Shown here piece after piece: positions 8,234 to 60,970 of a stretch of 64,000 nucleotides of DNA; position 1 is the first letter of the stretch, and each line of letters begins with the position of its first letter. The notes beneath the pieces were generated by a model. The model did no database searches. It was given only the letters and a program-made list of their open reading frames with translations, and had not been told where the DNA came from. The stretch is taken from positions 682,212-746,211 of the forward strand of contig CAVSDF010000010.1 in assembly GCA_963726715.1 (NCBI GenBank), in the 5' to 3' direction. A program made the translations under genes and the position numbers. The stretch is from Rhodothermales bacterium (GTDB lineage: Bacteria > Bacteroidota > Rhodothermia > Rhodothermales > BA12).

Positions 8234-8262
8234 GTGGAGGCGGGTCGGAGACCCGCCCCTAC
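8234..8262. repeat. GC-rich palindromic REP-like element (GGCGGGTC-N3-GACCCGCC-CCTAC)
   Basis: An inverted repeat read directly in the intergenic region between the phosphodiesterase and the TPR-like gene. It belongs to the same family as 13711, 15891 and 37262. Confidence 0.7.
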
Positions 8263-8424
8263 GTCGCCCCGCCACCGCACATCCCCCAACGCTCCCCGTG
8301 ACTGCCCGGATGGACGCGCTCCGCCGCCCAGACCCGCCGCCACAACCAACCATCAACAACCAACCCCATCCCCCATCCTCTCCCCGCGGCACGCGACGCC
8401 CCGCCCCGCGTACGTTCGTCCTGT

Positions 8425-13710: not shown

Positions 13711-13737
13711 GCGGGCGGGTCGGGGACCCGCCCCTAC
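13711..13737. repeat. GC-rich palindromic REP-like element / bidirectional terminator-like hairpin
   Basis: GGGCGGGTC-GGG-GACCCGCCC-CTAC lies between convergent genes (12423..13643 on + and 13734..14219 on -). It overlaps the stop codon of the latter. Confidence 0.65.
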
Positions 13738-14219
13738 TTGCCGCCGGTGTCGGGCGTGATGGTGCCGCGGCGAGCGAAGGAGACCTGCTGATTTTCGTCG
13801 GTCGTGAAGCCGAGGAGGTCGTTGGAGATGGCGACCGAGCCGCTCCACCGCACCGCACGCGACGGGTAGACGAGGTCGAGGGCGATGGCGAAGCCGTCGA
13901 AGCTGCCCTTCACGGTGGCGTTTTCGAGCGCGCGGGGCGGCGTGATCGGACGGTTGTCGGTGCGGCGCGTGGTGAGGGTGCCGGTGAGGGCGCCATTCGC
14001 GCCGCTGAGCACGAGCACCTGCTCGAAGACGACGTACTGCGTCCCCGACTGCGTGGCGACGCCAAGCGAGTCGCGGCGGTCCCACGTGCCCTGCGGCTTC
14101 AGATCGGGAAACGGCGACCCGCCCCCGCCGCTGTCGCACCCGGCGACGAGGGCGCCCGCGGCAATCACGGAGGCGAGGGCAAGGGGCGCGGCGAGGCGTG
14201 CAGCAGAAATCAGGCGCAT
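13734..14219 (-). CDS. putative lipoprotein
   Basis: Internal ATG at 14219 of ORF 13734..14345 gives MRLISAARLAAPLALASVIAAGALVAGCDSGGGGS (a lipobox followed by a Gly/Ser linker). I recognise no family. Confidence 0.55.
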   Translation of the reverse strand: MRLISAARLAAPLALASVIAAGALVAGCDSGGGGSPFPDLKPQGTWDRRDSLGVATQSGTQYVVFEQVLVLSGANGALTGTLTTRRTDNRPITPPRALENATVKGSFDGFAIALDLVYPSRAVRWSGSVAISNDLLGFTTDENQQVSFARRGTITPDTGGK

Positions 14220-15890: not shown

Positions 15891-15914
15891 AGGGGCGGGT
15901 CTCGACCCGCCCCC
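15891..15914. repeat. GC-rich palindromic REP-like element
   Basis: GGGGCGGGTC-TC-GACCCGCCCC lies between the oxidoreductase stop and the polyferredoxin start. Confidence 0.65.
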
Positions 15915-15955
15915 CACCGCCGCCCCGCCTCCCCCCAGCGCCCCATCCCCAATCC

Positions 15956-18751: not shown

Positions 18752-18824
18752 GGCTCGGTAGCTCAGTTGGTAGAGCAATGGACTGAAAATCCATGTGTCG
18801 GCGGTTCAAGTCCGTCCCGAGCCA
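18752..18824 (+). tRNA. tRNA-Phe (anticodon GAA)
   Basis: Cloverleaf folded by hand: acceptor GGCTCGG/CCGAGCC, D-arm GCTCAGTTGGTAGAGC, anticodon stem-loop ATGGA-CTGAAAA-TCCAT, T-arm GGCGG-TTCAAGT-CCGTC, discriminator A. CCA is not encoded. Confidence 0.9.
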
Positions 18825-18827
18825 CTC

Positions 18828-18867
18828 AAAGGCGCCCTTCCTGATGTCAGGAAGGGCGCCTTTGATT
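18828..18867 (+). terminator. Rho-independent-type terminator after tRNA-Phe
   Basis: A 14-bp perfect stem, GGCGCCCTTCCTGA / TCAGGAAGGGCGCC, is followed by TTTGATT. Confidence 0.65.
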
Positions 18868-19203
18868 ATGAGGCCCGCGTCTTCCATTCATCCGCGTGAA
18901 GCGGACTGCACAAGACGGGTCAGGCCCAGTAGCACGCCCCCGCTCGATCGTCGCCGGGTCTGGCGAGGGGGCGTTCCGGGCGCCGACGTCCTCGCCGGGC
19001 GGCGTCCGGGCGGCGACCTCCTCCCACCGCGTCTGCGGGGGCGTTTCGAGCGACTCCACAGCGGGGCTGCGCCTCGGTTGCAGAACCGCCGCCCGTCCGC
19101 TGGAGGTACAGCCCGGGGATGGGGTGGTGCGTACCTTGGCTCCTGCCTCCGAGGAAACAGCGCTGCCTGCCGTACCCTGTAGGCGTCTTCCGACCGCGCC
19201 GCC

Positions 19204-20035
19204 ATGCCTCCTCGTCCGAATCCGACCGACATTCTGCGCCGCAACAACGTGCGGATCTTCGGGCGCGGCACCCAGCCGATGGTGTTCGCCCACGGCTTCG
19301 GCTGCGACCAGAACATGTGGCGCTTCCTCACGCCCGCCTTCGAGGACGCCTACCGCATCGTCCTCTTCGACTACGTCGGCTCGGGCAGGTCGGACCTCAG
19401 CGCCTACCACGCCGACCGCTACGCCGACCTCAACGGCTACGCCGAGGACGTGCTGGAGGTCTGCGCCGCGCTCGACCTCCACGACATCGTGTTCGTCGGC
19501 CACAGCGTGAGCAGCATGATCGGCGTGCTCGCGTCCATCAAGGAGCCCGAGCGGTTCGCGCGGCTCGTGCTCGTCGGCCCCTCGCCGCGCTACATCAACG
19601 AGGCGCCCGACTACGTCGGCGGCTTCGAGCGGGCCGACATCGAGGACTCTGCTGTCGACGATGGAGAAGAACTACATCGGCTGGGCCAACTTCCTCGCGC
19701 CCGCCATCATGAAGAACCCCGAGCATCCGGAGCTCGGAGAGGAGCTCACCGAGAGCTTCTGCTCGACCGACCCGACGATCGCCCGGCAGTTCGCCAAGGC
19801 CACGTTCTTCTCCGACAACCGCCGCGACCTCGCCAAGGTCACCGTGCCGTCGCTCATTCTGCAGTGCTCGGACGACCTCATCGCGCCCCTCGACGTCGGC
19901 CACTACCTCCACCGCGAGATGCCGCAGAGCACGCTCCGCATCCTCCGCGCCACCGGCCACTGCCCCCACATGAGCGCCCCCGCCGAGACGATCGACGCGA
20001 TTCAGCAGTACCTCAGCGGCGCGCTGACGAACTGA
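19204..20035 (+). pseudogene. RsbQ / D14 / KAI2-like alpha/beta hydrolase, frame-disrupted by one nucleotide
   Basis: The N-terminal part is ORF 19204.. (FAHGFGCDQNMW, nucleophile elbow GHSVSSMIG). The C-terminal part is ORF 19661..20035 ([40 protein letters not shown] with the catalytic His). The junction reads gag gac t ctg ctg at about 19648; removing one nucleotide gives ..[17 protein letters not shown]... Length 832 nt is 1 mod 3. Confidence 0.8.
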
Positions 20036-20132
20036 CGCGGCCCCGGAGCCGTCGCCACGCGTCTCCCGACCGCTGCGCCCCGCCACACGAGGCGTTCTTC
20101 GGCCCGCCCGGCCCCGCATCCCCTTCCCCGCC

Positions 20133-21323
20133 ATGGACGACCTGCTCGATGCGGCGCCGTGCGGCTACGTGGCCTTCACCGACGCGGGCACCGTCACGGC
20201 CGTCAATGCGACGCTCGCGGAGATGCTCGGCTACGACCGGGCGGAGATCGTCGGCGGGCATGTCGAGCGGCTGCTCACGGTGGCCGGGCGCATCTTCTAC
20301 CAGACGCACCTCTTCCCGCTGCTGACCCTTCATGGCAAGGCCGAGGAGATCTTCCTGACGCTCCGCCGCAAGGACGGCGAGGGCGTGCCGGTGCTGGCCA
20401 ACGCGGTCCGCTCGGCGGAGGGCGACGACGGCCGCAGCGCCTGCGTGGTGATTCCCGTCTACCAGCGGCGCAAGTACGAGGACGAGATCCTGGCCGCCAG
20501 GCGCGTCGCCGAGGAGGCGGTGCAGAGCAGCGCCGAACTCACGCGCACCCGCACCGAACTCGAGCGGAACGCCCGCGAGCTCGACCGCAAGGTGAGCCGC
20601 CTCGAACAGCGCAACACCGAACTCACGCGCTTCAGCGTCATCCTCTCGCACGACCTCCGCGAGCCGATCCGCAAGCTGTCGGTCTTCGCCGGTCTCCTCG
20701 GTGGCGAAGACCGCGCGGCCCTCACCCCGATGGGCCTCCGCGCCGTCGACGTCCTTCAGACCGAGTGCGCCCGCCTCGACGCCCTCGTGCGCGGCCTGCA
20801 GGAGTACGTGGCCCTCGACGCCTCGACGGAGCCGTTCGAGGCCGTCGATCTCGGCGACGCCGCGCGCGCCGCGCGCGAGACCGTCGCACGGCGCCGTGGC
20901 CTGCCGGAGTTCGACGTGTCCATCGGCCCGCTGCCGACGGTGCAGGGCGCGCGGCGGCAGATCGAGGCGCTCTTCGTCCACCTGCTCGACAACGCCGTCA
21001 CGTTCTCCGCGCCCGGGGTGGCGCCGCGCGTGGTGCTGCGCGGGCACGAGGTGCAGGAGAACAGCTTCCGCGCCACCGAAGGCCGCTACCGCTACGTCGA
21101 CCACGCCCGGGTGGTGGTCGAGGACAACGGGACCGGCTTCGACGCGCGCTACAGCGACTACATCTTCGAGGCCCTGCGCAAGCTCGACCCGGCCAGCCCG
21201 GGCCTCGGCCTCGGCCTCGCCGTCTGCCGGAAGGTGGCCGAGAACCACTTCGGCTCCATCAAGGCCGCACCGGTGGTCGGCGGCGGAAGCCGCTTCACGG
21301 TGCTGCTTCCGCTCCAGCCATAG
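20133..21323 (+). CDS. cytoplasmic PAS-domain sensor histidine kinase
   Basis: Intact 396-aa ORF. It has an N-terminal PAS-like domain, a coiled-coil linker, the H-box SHDLREPIRK, and an HATPase region (DNGTGFD, GLGLGLAVCRK). I see no TM segments. Confidence 0.85.
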   Translation: MDDLLDAAPCGYVAFTDAGTVTAVNATLAEMLGYDRAEIVGGHVERLLTVAGRIFYQTHLFPLLTLHGKAEEIFLTLRRKDGEGVPVLANAVRSAEGDDGRSACVVIPVYQRRKYEDEILAARRVAEEAVQSSAELTRTRTELERNARELDRKVSRLEQRNTELTRFSVILSHDLREPIRKLSVFAGLLGGEDRAALTPMGLRAVDVLQTECARLDALVRGLQEYVALDASTEPFEAVDLGDAARAARETVARRRGLPEFDVSIGPLPTVQGARRQIEALFVHLLDNAVTFSAPGVAPRVVLRGHEVQENSFRATEGRYRYVDHARVVVEDNGTGFDARYSDYIFEALRKLDPASPGLGLGLAVCRKVAENHFGSIKAAPVVGGGSRFTVLLPLQP

Positions 21324-21353
21324 CGCGTCGGCGGAGGCGTCCGCGCGCCCGTG

Positions 21354-21821
21354 CTACGTGATCGGCGGAAGGGCGGGCGGCGGCAGAGCCGTCGGCGGAA
21401 GGGCTGCGATGTGGAGGTAGAAGTCCGACAACGTCCGGCACGACTCGGTCAGTCCGCCGAAGCTCATCGGCTTGGTCACGAAGGCGCTCGCGCCGAGATC
21501 GTAGCTCCGCTCGACATCCTCGGGCGCCTGCGACGTCGTGAAGACGACCACCGGCACGCGGCGCAGCGCCGGATCGGCCTTGATCTCCGCCAGCGCCTGC
21601 AGGCCGCTCAGCCGGGGCATGTTGAGGTCGAGCAGGATCATGCCCGGGAAGGGGGCGTCGGCGTCGCTGCCGCTGCGACGCAGGTACGCCATCAACTCGG
21701 CGCCGTCGTGGACGAAGCGCAGATCGACATCGTCGATGGCATGACGGAGCGCCATCCCGGTGAGATGGCAGTCTTCGAGGTCGTCATCGGCCATGAGAAG
21801 GGTGACGGGGGACAGCGGCAT
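21354..21821 (-). CDS. stand-alone CheY-like response regulator receiver
   Basis: The ATG at 21821 gives MPLSPVTLLMADDDLEDCHL...ILLDLNMPRLSG...VVVFTTS...FVTKP. These are the receiver acidic pocket, the phospho-Asp and the conserved Thr/Lys. There is no output domain. It converges on the PAS kinase. Confidence 0.85.
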   Translation of the reverse strand: MPLSPVTLLMADDDLEDCHLTGMALRHAIDDVDLRFVHDGAELMAYLRRSGSDADAPFPGMILLDLNMPRLSGLQALAEIKADPALRRVPVVVFTTSQAPEDVERSYDLGASAFVTKPMSFGGLTESCRTLSDFYLHIAALPPTALPPPALPPIT

Positions 21822-22060
21822 ACGACATTGCTGGATGGAGGACGGCGGCCCTCCCGGGGCCCTGGCGCCGCGGGAGAGGAAGATCGCGGCGAGCGCTGCA
21901 CCCCGGCAGGCACCGGATCGGCGGAATGACTCTCGAAACGCGGCAAGGCGCCGGAAGGTCGCGAAGGCGACCTCTTGCAAGCGACCTGCTTCGCCGCCGG
22001 GCGCGCGGCCTCACGGCGATCCGCAGGCGGATGCCTGCCCGCGGACGAGGCGGCCAGCGG

Positions 22061-22137
22061 ACTCGTCCTCCTTCGGCGGCTCGGCGCCGAGGAGGTGGCG
22101 GGTGAAGCAGTTCCCAGCGGCGGCGGATCATGCAGGC
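22061..22137 (-). repeat. about 77-bp remnant copy of the S9 peptidase 3' end (direct-repeat partner of 28803..28878)
   Basis: Hand alignment to 28803..28878 gives about 5 mismatches plus 1 indel. The ORF track translations show SFGGSAPRRWRVK at both loci. It lies in non-coding DNA upstream of the first hybrid kinase. Confidence 0.8.
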
Positions 22138-22479
22138 CCCTGCCGCGCCGAGCGAGGCCGAGGGCTCCGAGGCCGCCGCGACGTGTCGGCCACTGCGCTG
22201 CTGCAACCGCTGAGCGCGCTTACACAGGTGCATGTCCAGCATGGACCCACGCGCTTCAGCCGCGGCGCACTGCGGGCCTGTCCCGAGGCTCACTCCCTCT
22301 CAACCGTACAAACTGCCCGGGCGAATACTCGGCGGAGTTCCGGGAGCGGCAGACAAGTTCACACCAGCGTTCGTTACGCAAGAGTAACTTTTTTCTACCG
22401 GCACCTAACTTCCCTAACGGTAAGCACCACCCGGCCGATACTCAAGCGGTCCCGTCCTCCCTCGAGCGGGCCCCTCTCC

Positions 22480-25400
22480 ATGATGCACAACCGGTTTCTC
22501 GGCCTCTCCGACGACGCTCTGACCTTTCGTTTCACGAGTGCCCTGTTCGTCGGGAGTGTCGATCGGGCATGGCGAGACCAGGCGCGTGCGGTCGTCGATG
22601 CTCTTGCCGAGACCGGCATCGAGGGCAGCCCCCAGGCCGCGCGGGCGACCGACGCCTCTCTGCCAACCGCCCTTCCGGACCTCGTCTGCGCAGTCGGCAC
22701 CGACGGCTGCATCCACGAGATGACCCGCGAGGCCGCGGCCCTCTTCGGCAACCTCCTCCCCGCCTCGCGCCCCGGCAGCCTGCTCGACCTCGTCCACAGG
22801 GACGACCGCGCCCGGATGCGCACCGCTCTCGCCGACGTCCGGCCAGAGACGCCCATCGCTCGGATCGAGACGCGGTTCGCGTCCGCCGACGCGCCCGAGC
22901 GCGTGCTGGAATGGACCCTCGCCTGGTCCGACGCTCGCTCCGGCCTCCCGCCCACGAACGCCGACCCGCACGCCAGCGCCTGCATCGTCGCCGGTGCCCG
23001 CGACGTGACCGATGTGCGCCGGGCAGCGCAGGACACGCCCGCTCGTCGCGAGCGCGCCGACGCCAGCGAGCGCCGGTTTCATGCCCTCGTCGAATCCTCG
23101 GCCCTCATCGTCTGGACGGCCGATGCCACCGGGTTCGTCACCGAGCAGAGCCAGGCGTGGGAGCGCTTCACCGGCCAGACGCCCGAGCAGAGCAGCGGCT
23201 GGGGATGGACGCACGCGATCCACCCGGACGACCTGCCGCGCATCGCGCCGCTCTGGAGAACCGCACTCGCGCACCAGACGTCCATCGACCTCGAGTACCG
23301 ACTGCGGCGCCTCGACGGTGTCTACCGCTGGTTCTCCATTCACTGCGTGCCCGTCTTCGACGCCGCCGGTGCGTTCGTGGAATGGGTCGGATCGAGCACC
23401 GACATCGAGGACCGGAAGCAGGCCGAGGCCGCCCGCCGCACCAGTGACCTCCACTACGCGACTCTGCTCGACCACCTTCCCACCGCCGCCTACACCTGCG
23501 ACGCCGAAGGCCACATCGCCTACTTCAACGAGCACGCAGCGACCCTCTGGGGACGTGCCCCGCGCCTCCACGACGACGCCGACCGGTTCTGCGGCTCCCT
23601 GCGCCTCTACACCGCCGAGGGCGCGCCGCTGCCGCACGCGGACAGCGTCATGGCCCGCTGCCTGCGCGATGGACACGAGTACGCCGGTGAGGAGAAGATC
23701 GTCGAGCGCCCCGACGGGACGCGGCGGACGGTTCTCGCCAGCGCCACGCCGCTGCGGGACGAGACCGGCGCCGTCACCGGCGCCGTCAACGTGCTCATGG
23801 ACATCACCGAGCGCACGGCCCACGGGCGGGCCCTGCGCCAGAGCGAAGAGCGGTACCATCTGGTCGGGCAGGCCACCCACGACGCCATCTGGGACTACGA
23901 CATCGCCGCGGACCGCGTTCGGTGGACTCCCGCCATCGCCGACCACTTCGGCTGGACCGAGGCCCTCGCCGGCACCACCTACCAGTGGTGGCTCGACCGC
24001 GTCCACCCCGACGACCGCGCGGCCGTGACGACATCGGTCGAGCGCGAAGCCGCTGGCGAAGGCTCTCACTGGAGCAACCAGTACCGCTTCCTGCGCGCCG
24101 ACGGCACCTACGCCGACGTGCTCGACCGCGGCTACCTCCTCACCGACGGCACCGGGACGCCCCTGCGCATGGCCGGCGCCATGTTCGACGCAACCGAGAT
24201 GCGTCGCACCGACAGAGCGCTCCGGCAGAGCGAGGAGCACCTCCGCATCGCCCTCGAATCGGCGAGCATGGGCGCCTGGAGCCGGGACGTCATCGGCGAC
24301 CTCATGGAGTTCTCCGATCCCGCCTGCGAAATCTTCGGCGTGCCCGTCGGCAGCCTCAACGGCCCCTCCGATCTGTACATGGCCCTCGTCCACCCCGACG
24401 ATCTGCGCCATATCTACGCGGGCCGTGCCCGCGCCCGGGAGAGCAACGGCGTCTTCGACGCCGAATACCGCATTGCGCGTCCAGATGGCGCCATTCGCTG
24501 GCTGCACTCGAGGGGTCACATGTACCAGAACGACGCCGGCGAACCCGTCCGCATGGCCGGGACCATCGCCGACGTGACCGAGCGCAAGGAGCGGGAGCTG
24601 CAGCGCCGCCTGCTCGAGGCCGCCGTCAAGGACGCGACCGAATCGGTGCTCATCACCGACACGGCGCTCGACGCGCCCGGTCCTCGCATCGTCTACGTCA
24701 ACGCCGCCTTCGAGCGCATGACCGGCTACGCCGCCGCGGACGTGATCGGCCAGACCCCGCGCATCCTCCAAGGCCCCCTCACCGACGCGGCCCTCATGAC
24801 CCGCCTGCGCGAGGACCTCGAACACGGACGCCCGTTCCAGGGGCAGACGGTCAACTACCGCAAGGACGGGACGCCCTTCGAGATCGAGTGGTCGATCAGC
24901 CCGGTCGCCAACGAGCACGGCGAGACGACGCACTTCGTGGCTGTGCAGCGCGACATCACCGCGCGCAAGCAGGCCGAGCGGGATCTGCGCGTGGCCAAGG
25001 AGCGGGCCGAGGAGATGTCGCGCCTCAAGGACTCGTTCCTCTCGAACATGAGCCACGAGATCCGCACGCCGCTCACGGGAATCCTGGGCTTCGCCGAGAT
25101 CCTCGCCGAGCACGTCGACGCGGACGGGCGCGAATTCCTCGATGTGATCCACGCCAACGGCCAGCGGCTCATGGACACCCTGGAGGCGATTCTCCACCTC
25201 GCACAACTCGAAAGCGACTCGGTGGAACTGACGCCGAGCCGCTTCGACGCTGCCGCTGAGGTCCGGCGCCTCGTGCGCACCTTCGAGGCGCGCGCGCACG
25301 CCAAGGGGCTGGAGCTCACCGTCTCCGCGCCTCCCGGCGAGGTGCCCGTGACCACCGACCGCTCGGCGCTCCTGCGCCTTCTCTCGAACCTGGTCTCCAA

Positions 25401-26187
25401 CGCCCTCAAGTTCACCCGAGAGGGCCGCATCGACGTTCGGGTGACGGCGACCGAGACGGGCGTCGAGGTGGCCGTGTCCGACACCGGCATCGGCATCGGC
25501 CCCGACTTCCTGCCCCACCTCTTCGACGACTTCGCGCAGGAATCGGGCGGCCTCTCGCGCATGTTCGAGGGCAACGGGATCGGCCTGGCCATCAACCGCC
25601 ACCTCGCCCGGCTCCTGAGCGCGGAGATCACGGTCGAGAGCGAACAAGGCCAGGGAAGCTCCTTCACGGTTCACCTCCCCGAAAGCCTGCCCACCTCCGA
25701 AGGTCCACCCGCGTGGAGCGCCCCCATGCCAGAGCCGTCCAACACCGCTGTCCCGGTCGCAAGCCTGCCCCTGCCGCTGAAACGGGTCCCTCGCATCCTC
25801 GTGATCGAGGACAACAAGGAGACGCAGATGCTGCTTCGCCTCTTCCTCGAGAACCAGTACGAGGTCGACATCGCGCCCTCGTACGATGCGGCGGTCTCGC
25901 AGGCGCAGGCGCACCGGTACGACGCGCTGATCGTCGACATCACGCTCGAAGGCTCCAAGACCGGCGTCGACGTCCTTGGAAAGCTGCGCTCGATGGAGAT
26001 CTACCGGCACGCCCCCGCCATCGCGTGCACCGCCTACGCACTGCCGACCGACCGCGAGCGGTTCCTCGGCCACGGCTTCGACGACTACATCAGCAAGCCC
26101 TTCCGGCGCAAGACGGTCGAAGACTCGCTCCTGCGTGCGCTGAGCGGCGACGGCTCCAGCGCGCCTCCCCAGGAGCCCGCCCCCTGA
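22480..26187 (+). CDS. multi-PAS hybrid sensor histidine kinase / response regulator
   Basis: In-frame ATG at 22480 (MMHNRFLGL); the 5' extension of ORF 21760.. is GC-driven and overlaps the regulator and the repeat. It has repeated PAS/PAC units (..YRWFSIHCVPVFD.., ..IRWLHSRGHMYQND.., ..TPFEIEWSISPV..), the H-box [12 protein letters not shown], HATPase motifs (DTGIGI, GNGIGLAI), and a C-terminal receiver (RILVIEDNKE...DALIVDITL...KP). Confidence 0.85.
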   Translation: MMHNRFLGLSDDALTFRFTSALFVGSVDRAWRDQARAVVDALAETGIEGSPQAARATDASLPTALPDLVCAVGTDGCIHEMTREAAALFGNLLPASRPGSLLDLVHRDDRARMRTALADVRPETPIARIETRFASADAPERVLEWTLAWSDARSGLPPTNADPHASACIVAGARDVTDVRRAAQDTPARRERADASERRFHALVESSALIVWTADATGFVTEQSQAWERFTGQTPEQSSGWGWTHAIHPDDLPRIAPLWRTALAHQTSIDLEYRLRRLDGVYRWFSIHCVPVFDAAGAFVEWVGSSTDIEDRKQAEAARRTSDLHYATLLDHLPTAAYTCDAEGHIAYFNEHAATLWGRAPRLHDDADRFCGSLRLYTAEGAPLPHADSVMARCLRDGHEYAGEEKIVERPDGTRRTVLASATPLRDETGAVTGAVNVLMDITERTAHGRALRQSEERYHLVGQATHDAIWDYDIAADRVRWTPAIADHFGWTEALAGTTYQWWLDRVHPDDRAAVTTSVEREAAGEGSHWSNQYRFLRADGTYADVLDRGYLLTDGTGTPLRMAGAMFDATEMRRTDRALRQSEEHLRIALESASMGAWSRDVIGDLMEFSDPACEIFGVPVGSLNGPSDLYMALVHPDDLRHIYAGRARARESNGVFDAEYRIARPDGAIRWLHSRGHMYQNDAGEPVRMAGTIADVTERKERELQRRLLEAAVKDATESVLITDTALDAPGPRIVYVNAAFERMTGYAAADVIGQTPRILQGPLTDAALMTRLREDLEHGRPFQGQTVNYRKDGTPFEIEWSISPVANEHGETTHFVAVQRDITARKQAERDLRVAKERAEEMSRLKDSFLSNMSHEIRTPLTGILGFAEILAEHVDADGREFLDVIHANGQRLMDTLEAILHLAQLESDSVELTPSRFDAAAEVRRLVRTFEARAHAKGLELTVSAPPGEVPVTTDRSALLRLLSNLVSNALKFTREGRIDVRVTATETGVEVAVSDTGIGIGPDFLPHLFDDFAQESGGLSRMFEGNGIGLAINRHLARLLSAEITVESEQGQGSSFTVHLPESLPTSEGPPAWSAPMPEPSNTAVPVASLPLPLKRVPRILVIEDNKETQMLLRLFLENQYEVDIAPSYDAAVSQAQAHRYDALIVDITLEGSKTGVDVLGKLRSMEIYRHAPAIACTAYALPTDRERFLGHGFDDYISKPFRRKTVEDSLLRALSGDGSSAPPQEPAP

Positions 26188-26282
26188 CCTCCTTTCCCGA
26201 ACCGAGCGCCCGGTGAGACGGCCCGGGAAACACCGACCGCACGCCGCCCGTGCCCGGTTGGCCTCTCCCTCTCCGATCGTTC

Positions 26283-28739
26283 ATGACGCACGCCCCCACC
26301 CCGGACCTCCTCGGGCTTCTCTTCGCCCGCTCCGCCGTCGAGATGGGGCTGGTCGACCTCGCCGGTGACGAGATCGTCCACGTCTGCTCCAACCGTGCGC
26401 CGCACGAGGCCGCGGTGGACATCGAGGGCCTCCGCGCGCCCGGCCCCGACGGCACTGGCGCGGCCGGGCGCGCGCTGTGGATCGCGGCCTGCCAGCGCTG
26501 CCTCGACACCGGCGCCGCCACCGAGTTCGAGTCCCGTCGCTCGGCCCCCGGCGAACCGGTCGTCGTGGCGCTGAGCGCCGCCGGCGTGTCGCCCGGCGGA
26601 CAGCCGCGCTTCGCCTACGTCACGGCCCTGTCCAGCCGCGCAGGCACCGACGCCGAACTGGCCGCGGCGCGCCGCGTGGCCGACGAGTCGCAGCGCATCG
26701 CCGAAGCCGCGCAGCACCGGGCCGAAGTGGCCCAGCGGACCGCCGAGGAAGCCCAGCGCATCGCCGAAGAAGCGCAGCGCGTCGCCGAAGACGCCGACCG
26801 CGCCAAGAGCGCCTTCGTGGCCAACATGAGCCACGAGATCCGGACGCCGATGAACGGTGTCATCGGCATGACCGAACTGCTGCTCCAGACCGATCTGACC
26901 GAAAAGCAGCGGCAGTTCGCCGACATCGTCCACCGCAGCAGCGAGACGCTCCTCTCGCTCATCAACGACATCCTCGATTTCTCGAAGATCGAAGCCGGTC
27001 TCTTCGAGCCCGAGAGCATCCCCTTCGACCTGCGCGCCTGCATCGAAGGCACGCTCGATGTCGTTGCGCTCAGCGCTGCCACGAAGAACATCGACCTCGT
27101 CTTCGAGGTCGATTTCGACGTGCCCCACCGCATCCTCGGAGACGAAGGCCGGGTGCGGCAGATCATCCTGAACCTGCTCAGCAATGCCATCAAGTTCACC
27201 GACAGAGGCGACATCCTCGTCACCGCCCGCGCCTCTCCGGTCGAAGACGACACCTTCGAGATTCAGGTGGCCGTGCGGGACACCGGCTCGGGGATCCCGA
27301 TGGATCAGCTCGACCATCTCTTCGAACGCTTCGTGCAGCTCGACACCTCGACCACGCGCAAGCACGGCGGCACCGGCCTCGGCCTGGCCATCTCGCGCCG
27401 CCTCGCCGAACTCATGGGCGGGCGGATGTGGTCCGAGAGCACGGTCGGCGAAGGCTCGACGTTCTCGTTCAGCTTCCTCGCCCGGTCCACCAACGCCGAT
27501 CTCCCCGATCACTACCGGGGCGACTGGCCGACGCTGATCGACCGGCGCATCCTGATCGTCGACGACAACGAGACGAACCGGCGCATCCTCCTCGCCCAGG
27601 TCAGCCACTGGGGAATGGCGCCGACGACGGCGGGATCGGCGAAGGAAGCCCTCGCGCTGCTCGACGCGGGCGCGGCGTTCGACCTCGCAATCCTCGACTA
27701 CAACATGCCCGAGATGGACGGCGTCGAACTGGCCCGACGCTTCAAGCGGCAGGACGGCGCCCCCGGCGTGCCGCTCGTGCTGCTCAGCTCGATCAGCGAC
27801 CACGTCCGCTTCGCCCCCGAGGACGAGCACCTGTTCGCCGTTCGCCTTACCAAGCCGGTGAAGATGGCGCTGCTCTTCCGCACGCTCCAGACGTCTCTGG
27901 TCTCAGCCGCCCCCCACCCGAGCGGCGCCGAGGCGGCGTCCTTCGACGCGGCCGAGATGCACGCGCTTCGGATTCTCGTCGCCGAGGACAACGAGATGAA
28001 CCAGATGGTCGCACTCGCTCTGCTGGAGCGCCTCGGCGCCTCCGCGGAGATCGCGCGCAACGGCGCCGTGGCCCTCGACCGCGTCGCCGAGGGCGCCTTC
28101 GACGTCGTCTTCATGGATGTCGAGATGCCGGAGATGGACGGCATCGAGTGCACGCGGCGCATCCGGCACGACCTGCCGACCGACCGGCAGCCCTGGATCA
28201 TCGGCCTCACCGCGAACGCCCTCGTTGGCGCGCGCGAGCGCGTGATCGCCGCCGGCATGGACGACTACCTCTCCAAGCCGATCACCCTGACGGCCCTCCA
28301 GGGCGCCCTCGACCACGCCACCGCTGCTCTCCGCGACCGGGCCGCCCACGCCGCGTCTGGCCCGGACGACGTGGCCCTGCTCAACGCCGATACCCTGCGC
28401 GGGCTGCTCGAGGACCTGGGGGCGCAGGAGATCCTCAACACCCTCCTGCTCCGCTTCCTCGACAGCGCACCCGGATACGTGGACCACTTCGAGCAGGGCC
28501 TGGAGAACGTCGGCACCGGCGAGGCCCGCCGGGCCGCGCACACGCTGAAGTCGATGGCCGCCATGATCGGCGCCGACCGGCTCTCCGCGCGCGCCGCCCA
28601 TGCAGAGGCGCACGCCCAGCAGGCCGACACACAGGCCATGCGCGAGGTGCTGCGCCATCTCCGCGCCGACCTCGAGCACGCCCGGCAGGCCATACGGACG
28701 GTCCTCGAAGACGGTCTCCCGCGGTCGATGGACCGGTAG
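26283..28739 (+). CDS. hybrid histidine kinase with two receiver domains and a C-terminal HPt domain
   Basis: ATG at 26283 ([10 protein letters not shown]). Motifs in order: H-box [12 protein letters not shown]; HATPase ([18 protein letters not shown]); REC1 ([27 protein letters not shown]); REC2 ([28 protein letters not shown]); HPt ([14 protein letters not shown]). Confidence 0.88.
26685..26810 (+). repeat. imperfect 21-bp (heptad) tandem repeat encoding a coiled-coil linker before the H-box
   Basis: About six consecutive heptads: ESQRIAE / AAQHRAE / VAQRTAE / EAQRIAE / EAQRVAE / DADRAK. The DNA shows recurring gcccagcgcatcgccgaaga units. Confidence 0.7.
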
Positions 28740-28776
28740 GCACGCCGGGCGGCTCGACGGCCGCCGCGACGCGGCA

Positions 28777-31125
28777 TCACCGCACCGGCGAGAGGCGGCC
28801 GAACTCGTACTCCTTCGGCGGCTCGGCGCCGAGGAGGTGGCGCGTGAAGTAGTCCCAGCGGCGGCGCATCATGTAGGTGCTCGCCGAGCCGTAGCCGTGG
28901 CGCGCGTTCGGGAAGAGGACGAGGTCGAAGTCCTTGTTGGCCTTGATGAGCGCCTCGGCGACGAGCATCGTGTTCGAGGGCGGCACGTTGTCGTCCATCA
29001 TGCCGTGGGCCAGCATCAGGTGGCCACGCAGGTTGGCGGCGTACGTCTGGTTGGCCTCCACGTCGTAGCTGTCGGTCGGGCCGGTGCGCGCGACGAGGCC
29101 CTGGTAGCGCTCGCCCCAGTCGTCCTCGTAGTTGCGCTGGTCGTGGTTGCCGGACTCGGCGATGCCGACGTCGAAGAAGCCGGGGTGCCGCAGGAGCGCC
29201 GCCGCCGCCGCAAATCCGCCGCCCGAGTGGCCCCAGATGCCGACGCGGCTCGTGTCGATGTACGGGTAGCGCGTCGCGAGTTCGCGGATGCCGGCGATCT
29301 GGTCCGGCAGCGTGTTGTCGCCCATCCGCCCGTAATACGCGTCGTGGAAGGCCTTCGAGCGGCCCGGCGTGCCCATCCCGTCGATGGCGACGACGACGAA
29401 GCCGAGTTCGGCGAGCGCCTGGTTGTCGCCGCGCGCCGCCGAGAAGCTGCGCGAGCCGACGCTGCCCGACTGCGGACCGGGGTAGATGTAGTCGATGACC
29501 GGGTAGCGGCGCGACGGGTCGAGGGCCGTCGGGGTGAACATGAGGCCGTAGATGTCGGTCACGCCGTCGCGGCCCTTCATCCGCACCGGGGTCGGCGGGC
29601 GCCAGCCGGTCGCGGTCAGGCGCGAGATGTCGGCCCGCTCGACCGTTTGCAGGAGGGCGCCGCGCAGGTCGCGCACGACGGTCACGGGCGCCGTGTCGGG
29701 CGTCGAGTAGGTGTCGAGGAAGGCGTTGGTGCCCTCGGGGGCGAGGGTGACGACGTGGTTGGCGTCCTCGGGCGTCAGGAGCGTCAGGCCGCGTCCGTCG
29801 AAGCCGACGCGGTAGAGGTGGCGGAAGTACGGGTCGCGCCCGGCCTCGCGCCCGACGCCCATGAAGTAGACGACGCGCGCGGCCTCATCGACCCGCACGA
29901 CCTCGTCGACGTTGCCGTCGCCGGTCGTGATGGCGTTCTTGACGCGGCCCGTCGCCAAATCCACGAGCGACAGGTGCACCCATCCGGCGCGCTGCGACCA
30001 CCAGATCATCTCGTTCGTGGCCCCGAGCACGCGCCAGAGGTCTTCGCTCAGCGAGGCGTCGCCGATCTGCGTGGCGGAGGTCTCCTCCAGCACGGTCCGC
30101 ACGGCGCCCGTCGCGGCGTCGGCGACGCGGACGGTCGCCGTCTTGTGGTCGCGGCCCGAGGAGACGAAGACGAGGCGCTGCCCGTCGGCGGTCCACTGGG
30201 CGTCGCAGAGCGTGCCGCCGGAGCAGGCGATGTGGTCGCTGACGGTCGAGCGGTGGAAGTCCGGCGCCATCTGCAGGCGCGTGACGCGCGGCGCGGCGCC
30301 TCCCATCCCCAGATCGACGATCACGCGCGAGATGCGGAAGACGGCGCTGTCGCCGGGCAGCGGGTAGGCCCACGTCTCGGCGCGGGGCGTGCCGACGTTG
30401 GTGCTGACGAGGTGCATCTTGCCGACGCCGCGGCCGTCGTGCTGGAAGGTGGCGATGCGGCGGCTGTCGGGGCTCCACGTGAGGATGGCGCGGTCGGAGT
30501 GCGTCCAGCCCGCGTTGTCGGTCGCGTAGCCGAAATCTTCGACGCCGTCGGTGGTGAGCGCGGTTTCGCGGCCCGTTGCCACGTCGCGCGCCCAGAGGTT
30601 GTGGTCGCGGATGAAGACGTCGGTCTTGCCGTCGGGCGAGCGGCTCGCGTTGCGCACCGGCGGGGCGGTCGCGGCAGTCGCAGCGGCGGGCGTGCACGTG
30701 TCGGCGCGGCAGGTCCAGCGGCGGCCACCGGCGGAGACGGTCACGGCGTCGCCGTCGAGCTCGATGGCGCCGAAGGGCAGGCGCTCGGCGTCGACCGGCG
30801 TGCCCGAGGCGGCAGACAGAGCGCGGGCGAGGCGGGCGTGGTCGAAGGCGGGTTCGCGCGTGCGCTTGGCGGGATCGACGACGTAGAACATCCCCGAGCG
30901 CGCATCGCCGCCGCGGTACCAGAAGCGCCCGCCGGACATCCACCCCGGTCGCACGCTCGTCCCGCTCACGAGCGGAAACGTCGACGGCGCCAGCATCCGC
31001 TCGGCGCGGGCGTAGTCGGCGGCGGTGAGCGCGGGCTGCGCGAGAACAGGAGCGGCGGCGAGGCCGAGCAGCAGGACGGCCGACGAGACGGCCCGGAGCC
31101 GCGGTGCGGCGCGAAGGAGGCGCAT
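28777..31125 (-). CDS. S9 family serine peptidase (dipeptidyl-peptidase IV / prolyl oligopeptidase-like)
   Basis: The ATG at 31125 gives 782 aa with the signal MRLLRAAPRLRAVSSAVLLLGLAAAPVLAQ, a beta-propeller N-domain, and a catalytic domain with GIWGHSGGGF (GxSxGG nucleophile), HGMMDDNV and FPNARHGY. ORF 28777..33060 extends upstream spuriously. Confidence 0.9.
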   Translation of the reverse strand: MRLLRAAPRLRAVSSAVLLLGLAAAPVLAQPALTAADYARAERMLAPSTFPLVSGTSVRPGWMSGGRFWYRGGDARSGMFYVVDPAKRTREPAFDHARLARALSAASGTPVDAERLPFGAIELDGDAVTVSAGGRRWTCRADTCTPAAATAATAPPVRNASRSPDGKTDVFIRDHNLWARDVATGRETALTTDGVEDFGYATDNAGWTHSDRAILTWSPDSRRIATFQHDGRGVGKMHLVSTNVGTPRAETWAYPLPGDSAVFRISRVIVDLGMGGAAPRVTRLQMAPDFHRSTVSDHIACSGGTLCDAQWTADGQRLVFVSSGRDHKTATVRVADAATGAVRTVLEETSATQIGDASLSEDLWRVLGATNEMIWWSQRAGWVHLSLVDLATGRVKNAITTGDGNVDEVVRVDEAARVVYFMGVGREAGRDPYFRHLYRVGFDGRGLTLLTPEDANHVVTLAPEGTNAFLDTYSTPDTAPVTVVRDLRGALLQTVERADISRLTATGWRPPTPVRMKGRDGVTDIYGLMFTPTALDPSRRYPVIDYIYPGPQSGSVGSRSFSAARGDNQALAELGFVVVAIDGMGTPGRSKAFHDAYYGRMGDNTLPDQIAGIRELATRYPYIDTSRVGIWGHSGGGFAAAAALLRHPGFFDVGIAESGNHDQRNYEDDWGERYQGLVARTGPTDSYDVEANQTYAANLRGHLMLAHGMMDDNVPPSNTMLVAEALIKANKDFDLVLFPNARHGYGSASTYMMRRRWDYFTRHLLGAEPPKEYEFGRLSPVR
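28803..28878 (-). repeat. direct-repeat partner (authentic 3' end of the S9 peptidase CDS)
   Basis: See 22061..22137. Confidence 0.8.
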
Positions 31126-37261: not shown

Positions 37262-37289
37262 GGGGGGCGGGTCTGAGACCCGCCCCTAC
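37262..37289. repeat. GC-rich palindromic REP-like element
   Basis: GGGGCGGGTC-TGA-GACCCGCCCC-TAC lies just upstream of the VOC/hydrolase gene. Two ACCTG(A/C)CAGGT palindromes at 37206-37233 precede it. Confidence 0.7.
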
Positions 37290-37312
37290 ATTGCGTTTTT
37301 TCCGGTCGTCCC

Positions 37313-41472: not shown

Positions 41473-41640
41473 CGATCCGAGCCAACGCCTCCCTTGAGGG
41501 CGGTGGCCCACCGCGGAGCGGCGCAGGCTCCGGGCCGGAGGGTGTGGGGCGGTCCTTGAGCCTCCGAGGTTGCTTCGCCGCCCCACACCCCCACCCCGCC
41601 TCGGCGGGGAGCCCCCTCAAGGGGGCGGTTTGGTCGTTCA
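41473..41640 (+). repeat. about 170-bp structured intergenic repeat, copy 1
   Basis: Hand alignment with 60797..60970. Shared blocks: CTCCCTT(C)GAGG, GGCCGGAGGGTGTGGGGCGG, CCGCCCCACACCCCCACCCCGCC, GGCGGGGAGCCCCTC and AGGGGGCGGT. It contains the inverted repeat GGGTGTGGGGCGG / CCGCCCCACACCC. Confidence 0.75.
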
Positions 41641-60796: not shown

Positions 60797-60970
60797 CGAT
60801 GCGACCAACCCAATCCCTCCCTTCGAGGAACCGAAGGTCCGCGCAGCGGAAGGTGGCCTGAAAGGCCGGAGGGTGTGGGGCGGCCCAACCATCTGTGGCC
60901 TCTGAACCGCCCCACACCCCCACCCCGCCGATGGCGGGGAGCCCCTCGCAGGGGGCGGTGGGTTCGTCCG
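60797..60970 (+). repeat. about 170-bp structured intergenic repeat, copy 2
   Basis: See 41473..41640. It has the same orientation and the same position: between the stop of one minus-strand gene and the start of the next. Confidence 0.75.

Follow-up and report, generated by a model that had tools for sequence, protein, structure and literature searches.

A decaying second copy of a serine peptidase 3' region borders two hybrid histidine kinase genes in a Rhodothermales bacterium

How does a piece of one gene come to lie on the far side of two others? The question is raised by a 64,000-nt stretch of the genome of a Rhodothermales bacterium (assembly GCA_963726715.1, contig CAVSDF010000010.1, positions 682,212 to 746,211 of the forward strand; hereinafter designated the window). 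In this stretch the 3' region of an S9/DPP-IV family serine peptidase gene (S9) occurs twice in the same orientation, with two hybrid histidine kinase genes (HK1 and HK2) between the copies. The original prediction took the arrangement as the footprint of a two-kinase module inserted next to, or recombined into, the S9 3' end. Here, the right copy is identified as the authentic end region of the gene, and the left copy as a pseudogene fragment that evidently stems from the same S9 lineage. A scar of local illegitimate recombination is the reading that we favour for it, with about even confidence. The argument turns on the following features, delimited with Pfam, open reading frame (ORF) coordinates and alignments as indicated.

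21825-22479, no strand: divergent intergenic region of 655 bp between the regulator gene RR and HK1, containing the left copy (ORF coordinates)
22047-22150, minus strand: left copy, a pseudogenised S9 3' fragment with its core at 22061-22137 (self-blastn, codon comparison)
22151-22479, plus strand: unique 329-bp region upstream of HK1, bounded on the left by the inner breakpoint of the left copy (no S9 similarity)
22480-26187, plus strand: HK1, multi-PAS hybrid histidine kinase of 1235 aa with four PAS domains, HisKA, HATPase_c and REC (Pfam)
26283-28739, plus strand: HK2, hybrid kinase of 818 aa from the ATG at 26283, with HisKA, HATPase_c, REC, REC and Hpt (Pfam)
28740-28776, no strand: 37-bp spacer between the convergent HK2 and S9 stop codons (ORF coordinates)
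28777-31122, minus strand: S9/DPP-IV family serine peptidase, intact, 781 aa, convergent with HK2 (Pfam, orthologues)
28792-28891, minus strand: right copy, authentic S9 coding 3' region, codons ..GSASTYMMRRRWDYFTRHLLGAEPPKEYEFGRL (alignment; tail and motif as in 23 orthologues)

The ORF that encloses HK1 runs from 21745 to 26187, and that of HK2 opens at 26250.

Comparison of the window with itself by blastn aligns 22047-22150 with 28792-28891 in direct orientation, with 85.6% identity over 104 columns and 2 gaps (E=1e-25). MAFFT alignment of padded segments and a repeat search recover the same pair, which is the strongest non-self match of the window; the second-ranked match (E=3e-14) is an unrelated REP-like (repetitive extragenic palindromic) element. 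The copies are spaced by 6742 bp, and the left copy is joined to the unique DNA at 22150|22151. Specifically, the core segments 22061-22137 and 28803-28878 differ by 5 mismatches and one 1-nt indel, as the original prediction had counted, and include an identical run of 33 nt (22068-22100 = 28810-28842), the longest between the copies. The weak outward similarity that it had noticed is present as well, as GAGGCGGCC at 22047-22055, and the formal alignment and window-versus-self blastn that it had proposed as checks both recover the pair. In what follows, the repeat is treated as about 100 bp with two sharp ends.

The right copy belongs to an intact peptidase gene. The S9 protein matches the Pfam families DPPIV_N (4.7e-52) and Peptidase_S9 (4.1e-50), and a search of 185,579 species genomes gave orthologues of 55-73% identity at 80 loci, the best of them, up to 73%, in metagenome-assembled genomes of Gemmatimonadaceae. 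The right copy encodes ..YMMRRRWDYFTRHLLGAEPPKEYEFGRL.. of S9 and reads ..GSASTY MMRRRWDYFTRHLLGAEPPKEYEFGRL SPVR* on the minus strand, ending 15 nt before the S9 stop codon (28777-28779). This sequence holds the best-conserved C-terminal motif of the family, and its tail is as long as that of 23 orthologues. Motif and tail thus bear out the earlier view that this copy is the genuine C-terminal coding end.

The left copy is a dead fragment. On the minus strand it reads ..GAAGAC MIRRRWD(+1 nt)CFTRHLLGAEPPKEDES(+A)GRL..., and with the 1-nt insertion taken out it translates to CMIRRRWDCFTRHLLGAEPPKEDES(A)GRL. It represents about 33 of the 781 S9 codons, roughly codons 744-776, and carries the frameshifting 1-nt insertion together with a 3-nt insertion. 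Five residues are changed in its 28-codon core (Y>C, M>I, Y>C, Y>D and F>S), all of them at positions that are invariant or nearly so in the orthologues (n=23). Four of its six substitutions are from A/T to G/C and none is in the reverse direction (Fisher p=0.009), which is the drift expected of unconstrained DNA in a genome of 72% GC. The ORF overlapping it has no Pfam match, and a tblastn search with the full S9 protein detects nothing else in the window that resembles S9. To judge from these sequence features, the left copy is a pseudogene fragment, functionless and apparently decaying neutrally. It had been described before as a non-functional remnant, and the frameshift, the changes at invariant residues and the absence of a Pfam match and of S9 homology upstream uphold that description. 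The appropriate annotation is that of a pseudogene remnant; neither att site nor small ORF would be correct.

The source of the fragment is defined by its synonymous sites. DNA identity alone is weak evidence, since the block is 71-88% identical even in distant orthologues; synonymous change is the informative measure. Among the 23 codons that specify the same residue in both copies, a single one differs synonymously, compared with a median synonymous difference of 44% and a minimum of 5% in the matching codons of 69 orthologues. One difference or fewer in 23 has a probability of 3e-5 at a rate of 0.44 and of 0.025 at a rate of 0.22. The 33-nt identical core occurs at none of the 80 orthologue loci. 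Because only 1 of 23 codons shows a synonymous difference, the left copy evidently comes from the S9 lineage of the window itself, or from one very closely related to it, and not from an old paralogue. Synonymous-site identity is also the ground on which a diverged donor or paralogue is rejected as its source, and it disfavours the alternative that the original prediction had offered, an old paralogue whittled down to its last codons.

The same conservation could suggest chance similarity, convergence, or an element kept by selection for some function, for instance as a regulatory site or small ORF, because no motif of the family is more conserved than the repeat block and unrelated orthologues already share 71-88% of its DNA with the right copy. 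We find this barely credible. The left copy is closer to the S9 gene of the window than to any of the 80 orthologues; it is missing from the otherwise conserved region upstream of RR in relatives; and its substitutions follow a pattern of relaxed constraint. Apart from the nearby tRNA, there was no Rfam match, and neither copy showed a match to an intrinsic terminator or a sigma-70-type promoter; the DNA of 21940-22060 folds unremarkably (z=-1.2). Against chance, or convergence in GC-rich DNA, stands the E value of the pair, to which nothing else in the window is comparable.

Inward, similarity between the copies ends in a variable linker right after the catalytic-His motif (ARHGYG|), and this edge is taken as a breakpoint because slow decay would leave those strongly conserved codons recognisable. 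Outward, similarity stops at the GRL codons, 15 nt short of the S9 stop. No significant similarity was found inward of 22150/28891 or outward of 22047/28792. A possible outward continuation consists of a 27-nt insertion, a 6-nt deletion and then TCGCCG..TGAGGCCGCG; local tests of the S9 tail and stop against the left flank were not significant (p=0.06-0.13). The 27-nt extra stretch in the tail of the left copy (22020-22045) has no second occurrence in the window, and a possible in-frame stop lies at 22011-22013 on the minus strand. Because similarity is not demonstrable through the S9 stop into the native downstream flank, the left copy may be an internal piece of about 100 bp, not a retained gene end.

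Do the kinases between the copies look like a mobile element? The bracketed 6.64 kb (22151-28791) contain two ORFs only, with PAS, HisKA, HATPase, REC and Hpt domains, and the non-coding remainder amounts to 329 + 37 bp. No integrase, recombinase or transposase domain was found between the copies with Pfam, and the ends of the segment carry no terminal inverted repeats beyond chance (score 19, shuffle mean 18.8). The GC content at third codon positions (GC3) is 0.87 for the ORF enclosing HK1 and 0.91 for HK2, within the range of 0.83-0.96 for genes of the window; a foreign composition is rejected on this ground. A transposon or insertion sequence is rejected too, given the lack of transposase and inverted repeats and a duplication of about 100 bp instead of a 2-14 bp target duplication. 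A tRNA-linked island is rejected as well, the 3' end of the nearby tRNA-Phe gene being repeated nowhere in the window.

Accessory DNA between direct repeats that derive from the 3' region of a gene and share an identical core of 33 bp would also fit the attL and attR sites of an integrase island that entered the S9 3' end, supplied a replacement end and has since lost its integrase. This is very improbable. Between the copies there is neither a recombinase nor any other non-kinase ORF, nor room for one; phage and conjugation genes are absent there; the composition of the bracketed DNA is native; and the tRNA-Phe gene nearby is without an att-like repeat. The claim of a two-kinase insertion fares unevenly, in that the kinases do appear specific to the lineage, but the hallmarks of an inserted element (recombinase, inverted repeats, deviating GC3) are lacking. 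On present evidence HK1 and HK2 should not be called a mobile cassette. Recombination between the copies, which share the 33-bp identical core, could delete the kinase block again.

The kinase block looks lineage-specific from database comparison. A search of 5.8 billion proteins returned no homologue of HK2 above 50% identity except HK2 itself, and the 90% clusters of HK1, the PAS kinase HK0 upstream of RR, the NAD kinase and SpoIIE are singletons. The named best matches of HK2 are from other phyla (Chloroflexota, Actinomycetota and Candidatus Entotheonella); its codon composition is native. Just before its HisKA domain, at 26658-26800, HK2 contains five tandem 21-nt (7-residue) repeats ..AEEAQRI.., which look like a heptad coiled-coil linker. 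The content of the interval was correctly described in the original prediction, namely a lower-GC stretch (about 22290-22470, GC 0.60-0.64), a multi-PAS hybrid kinase and a REC-REC-Hpt hybrid kinase. The first of these it had called promoter-like; the lower GC content holds, but no sigma-70-type consensus was found, so that the label reflects composition alone. The whole of 22151-22479 yielded neither a promoter nor a terminator consensus, and the spacer at 28740-28776 no terminator-like site. The lower-GC stretch also contains a GTTAC-N6-GTAAC palindrome with T6 behind it (22373-22394), which might serve as an operator or a weak terminator.

The left copy is situated 85 bp from the point at which homology with the nearest relatives ends. 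The features on this side of the region, and the gene beyond S9, are as follows.

18752-18825, plus strand: tRNA-Phe(GAA) gene (Rfam match)
19140-21962, no strand: three-gene block of hydrolase, HK0 and RR with 138 bp upstream of RR (conserved in relatives)
19204-20017, plus strand: alpha/beta hydrolase gene, frameshifted here, at the start of the three-gene block
20133-21323, plus strand: HK0, PAS-HisKA-HATPase histidine kinase (Pfam)
21354-21824, minus strand: RR, REC-only regulator (Pfam)
21963-22046, no strand: 84 bp of unassigned DNA from the end of the shared block to the left copy (not significantly similar to S9 tail, spacer or HK2 end)
from 31540, plus strand: SpoIIE-type phosphatase, divergent from S9 (Pfam)

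Close relatives are known from short contigs of soil-type metagenomes in ENA only. The S9 relatives P0121 and P0241 are found on contigs L081 and L082, which are 90-92% identical to the window in DNA; P0121 shares 94% of its amino acids with S9, and L082 conserves the S9-SpoIIE neighbourhood. The RR relative P0244 (88%) occurs on nine contigs from at least 8 samples. Contigs L083-L090 match the window at 85-93% across the hydrolase-HK0-RR block, whose left limit at 19140 is reached by L085 and whose right limit at 21962 is reached by L083-L086 and L089. Outside 19140-21962, these contigs share nothing with the window. Upstream of RR, the relatives have a rhomboid protease gene and gcvT (Pfam), and neither the left copy, HK1/HK2 nor S9; at the junction itself stands the rhomboid gene in L083 and a REP-like element in L087. 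On the far side of the block, L085 has an FAD oxidoreductase gene, not tRNA-Phe. In L091 (83% DNA identity) the three-gene block lies between KamA-like and BON-domain-like genes, as judged by eye from translations. Among RR homologues of 60-67% identity (L091-L096), S9 is not a neighbour. The only S9-adjacent block is that of the more distant L002, with S9, hydrolase and HK0 in this order on one strand and without RR.

The left copy is thus located at a rearrangement junction that is variable even among near-identical relatives. The original prediction had asked whether the regulator sits directly next to S9 where the kinases are absent; it does not in the close relatives sampled, which have rhomboid and gcvT beside RR. 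Wider searches returned nothing closer: the 33-mer core and a lineage-specific S9 27-mer had no match in JGI metagenome contigs, the S9 C-terminus found nothing above 78% among 1.84 billion representatives, PLSDB plasmids gave no match, and exact look-ups of the HK2 and S9 proteins of the window retrieved no recorded contig.

Contig L081 adds a discordant segment to this picture. It tracks the S9 gene of the window from 31230 to 29153 at 92-97% identity. Thereafter, at the end of this 2.2-kb metagenome contig, its positions 2130-2244 are an inverted equivalent of about 28883-28994 that is only 83% identical. Over this piece, L081 resembles the window no more than either resembles generic orthologues; at the upstream rate, 18 or more mismatches in 107 nt would have a probability of 6e-6. 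The junction falls at a CGCCGAG microhomology, some 8 nt or less from the inner edge of the left copy. The discordance reflects either a recombinant S9 3' end in one of the two lineages, whichever it is, or an inverted piece that comes from another S9-like gene, a chimera or a real inversion.

With these results, the possible routes to the locus, all of which call for illegitimate joins, can be weighed. We place about even confidence in the view that the left copy is a scar of local illegitimate recombination, formed either by a tandem duplication of 6.74 kb that collapsed or by capture of a repair patch, and not the footprint of a mobile cassette. In the first version, the 6.74 kb at 22151-28891, from about 330 bp before HK1 to the linker after the S9 catalytic His, would have been duplicated in tandem, with the new join (S9 linker to HK1 upstream region) at a short microhomology of the GCCGAG type; the redundant upstream copy would then have been deleted with its last 100 bp or so left behind. 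In the single-step version, a patch of about 100 bp of S9 would have been captured during break repair in the RR-HK1 intergenic region. In either version the kinases would already have stood beside S9 and would not have been inserted by the event. The direct repeat, the S9-lineage origin of the fragment, its pseudogene state, its sharp breakpoints, the absence of mobile features and the break in synteny are shown by the sequences; the nature and order of the events are our inference. The local scar is favoured because of the synonymous near-identity of the copies, the native composition, the absence of any element gene and the sharp ends on both sides. The left copy abuts the start of the unit, as expected of a collapsed tandem duplication; the rival routes yield the same layout. 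Several observations weigh against this reading. The outer flanks of about 97 nt are only marginally similar in gap-tolerant global alignment (p=0.006-0.025), and local tests of the left flank against the spacer and HK2 end beyond the stop reach no significance (p=0.3-0.7). Divergence amounts to 7 of 18 positions in the linker part of the repeat versus 6 of 84 in the core (Fisher p=0.0015), which would be unexpected of copies born identical, except if the inner breakpoint really lies at about 22137. Neither the intermediate, with two kinase blocks, nor the ancestral state was found in any genome. To our knowledge, capture of templated patches of about 100 bp at breaks is poorly documented in bacteria. 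Finally, the kinases are apparently absent from the nearest sampled relatives, and a recent arrival of the kinases would fit at least as well.

Such an arrival is the substance of the next explanation, in which donor DNA with HK1-HK2 and a convergent S9 3' part recombined where S9 adjoined RR. One end would have joined by homology in S9 and the other illegitimately in the S9 linker; the last 100 bp or more of the resident gene would have been orphaned, and S9 rebuilt with the incoming 3' end. The topology fits, with a complete gene, cargo, and an orphan of the gene's 3' region in the same orientation, and there is a precedent in the orphaned 3' ends of Rhs and type VI secretion system (T6SS) loci (PMC5361080). 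Two points speak for import, namely that the kinases appear to be absent from relatives and that a segment of the S9 3' end is discordant: no close homologue of the kinases was found, although RR and S9 relatives of 88-94% identity have been sampled repeatedly, and 28888-28994 of S9 is 83% identical to L081 as against 92-95% upstream (P=6e-6), as expected of a recombinant S9 3' end. In L002, moreover, S9 stands directly beside the hydrolase-kinase block. However, a donor as diverged as the 83% segment should give about 20-40% synonymous difference, compared with the 1 of 23 seen (P<=0.025), and the discordant segment is an inverted piece at a contig end that could belong to another gene or a chimera, and the recombinant lineage may be either one. 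The orphan should also have retained the tail, stop and flank that belonged to it, yet no significant similarity extends through the stop; relatives have rhomboid and gcvT beside RR, not S9; and the codon composition of the cargo is native. The homeologous copies and the retained stop and flank that import predicts are not seen. It ranks second to the local scar, and we consider it possible but on balance unlikely. Insertion next to or into the S9 3' end is in the same way a possible account of the locus, but neither the sole reading of the footprint nor the first-ranked one. Somewhat more doubtful still is the idea that the two kinases were captured naturally and without an integrase, by one-sided homology at the highly conserved 3' end of this housekeeping peptidase gene that displaced the old end, and that the S9 linker just after the catalytic His is a recurrent breakpoint; the latter is suggested because the fragment's inner edge (28878-28891) and the L081 junction (28883) fall within about 8 nt of each other at CGCCGAG. 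A second full-length S9 gene between RR and HK1, deleted to its last 100 bp or so, seems improbable. The fragment does have the direct orientation and sharp inner breakpoint that such a loss would leave, and its distance from RR is about that of an upstream gene end, the rhomboid stop of relatives being 45 bp from the same boundary. Nevertheless, the synonymous near-identity requires any second S9 to have been a very recent duplicate and not a diverged paralogue, whole-gene duplication across the kinase block and at least one precise deletion would be needed, and neither a further S9-like residue in the window nor a relative with a second S9 was found.

The neighbouring block shows rearrangements of its own. 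The block of hydrolase and PAS kinase, with or without the REC regulator, is 83-93% identical in DNA, but four genomes show four different sets of neighbours for it: tRNA-Phe and the S9 fragment; FAD oxidoreductase and rhomboid-gcvT; KamA-like and BON-like genes; and S9 and TPR (L002 12175-14405). The hydrolase-PAS pairing recalls RsbQ-RsbP. In L085 (875-2230), a deletion of about 760 bp (window 20014-20774) fuses the hydrolase to the HATPase of HK0 in a 451-aa ORF (Abhydrolase + HATPase_c); L086, from the same population, is without this deletion. In the window, the hydrolase gene has a 1-nt insertion near 19647 compared with both L085 and L091, leaving two frames (19216-19644 and 19649-20017), and is either a pseudogene or affected by a sequencing error. 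Directly 3' of tRNA-Phe, a 40-nt near-perfect palindrome (18826-18865) is probably its terminator.

Two further repeats occur elsewhere in the window. A palindromic element, GGGCGGGTC-N-GAGACCCGCCCCTAC, has at least 3 copies (8236-8267, 13711-13742 and 37263-37294) and one on the opposite strand (15891-15921), and is probably a REP-type or terminator hairpin family. An element of about 105 nt, CCGCCCCACACCCCCACCCCGCC...GGGGGCGG, is present twice (41533-41637 and 60864-60967) and again in L087 (41-154), where it stands exactly at the regulator-block boundary at which strains differ; it looks like a REP element or a miniature inverted-repeat transposable element.

The locus marks a rearrangement-prone junction in a poorly sampled lineage. 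As a routine rearrangement scar it would have little significance beyond correct annotation. If import were true, it would be a natural case, outside toxin loci, of genes gained without an integrase through one-sided homology, a process whose descriptions so far come mainly from polymorphic-toxin loci.

Compared with known systems, a local scar finds its nearest counterpart in tandem amplification. Illegitimate recombination between sites with 0-5 bp of identity is known to give rise to tandem duplications in bacteria (PMC9997567). The amplification of cat in Acinetobacter baylyi (PMC9997567, and the work of Reams & Neidle cited there) has in common with this locus direct repeats spaced by the duplicated unit, a novel end-to-start join, at most a short GC-rich microhomology (GCCGAG here) and the absence of mobile-element genes. 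The two differ in that here about 100 bp of the first copy is left, so that a second, illegitimate deletion has to be assumed, and in that an old scar without an observed intermediate stands against a laboratory selection.

For import, the counterpart is the orphan 3' ends of Rhs/T6SS effector-immunity loci, which are ascribed to homology-facilitated illegitimate recombination (PMC5361080). A full gene, acquired cargo and an orphan 3' region in the same orientation are common to both, and one-sided homology with an illegitimate join gives this layout. Jackson et al. 2009, cited in that Rhs/T6SS paper, reportedly described C-terminal displacement with orphan 3' fragments. Unlike those loci, the gene here is a housekeeping-type peptidase and not a polymorphic toxin, the cargo consists of two signalling kinases on the opposite strand, and the orphan is single and not part of an array. 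Furthermore, the two 3' regions are nearly identical at synonymous sites here, whereas displaced toxin tips are unrelated.

The e14 element and phage 21 in icd of E. coli are integrative elements that enter a gene at its 3' end and bring a replacement for it, the displaced end being left behind as a pseudogene fragment. They share with this locus a duplicated 3' end around accessory DNA, an intact gene and a decaying displaced piece. Here, in contrast, there are no integrase, excisionase or phage genes, the composition is native, and the stop codon is not demonstrably within the repeat. In itself, the left copy differs in no essential respect from the ordinary gene-fragment pseudogenes of bacterial intergenic DNA, with which it shares a frameshift, the loss of conserved residues, the lack of a start codon and a drift towards the base composition of the genome.

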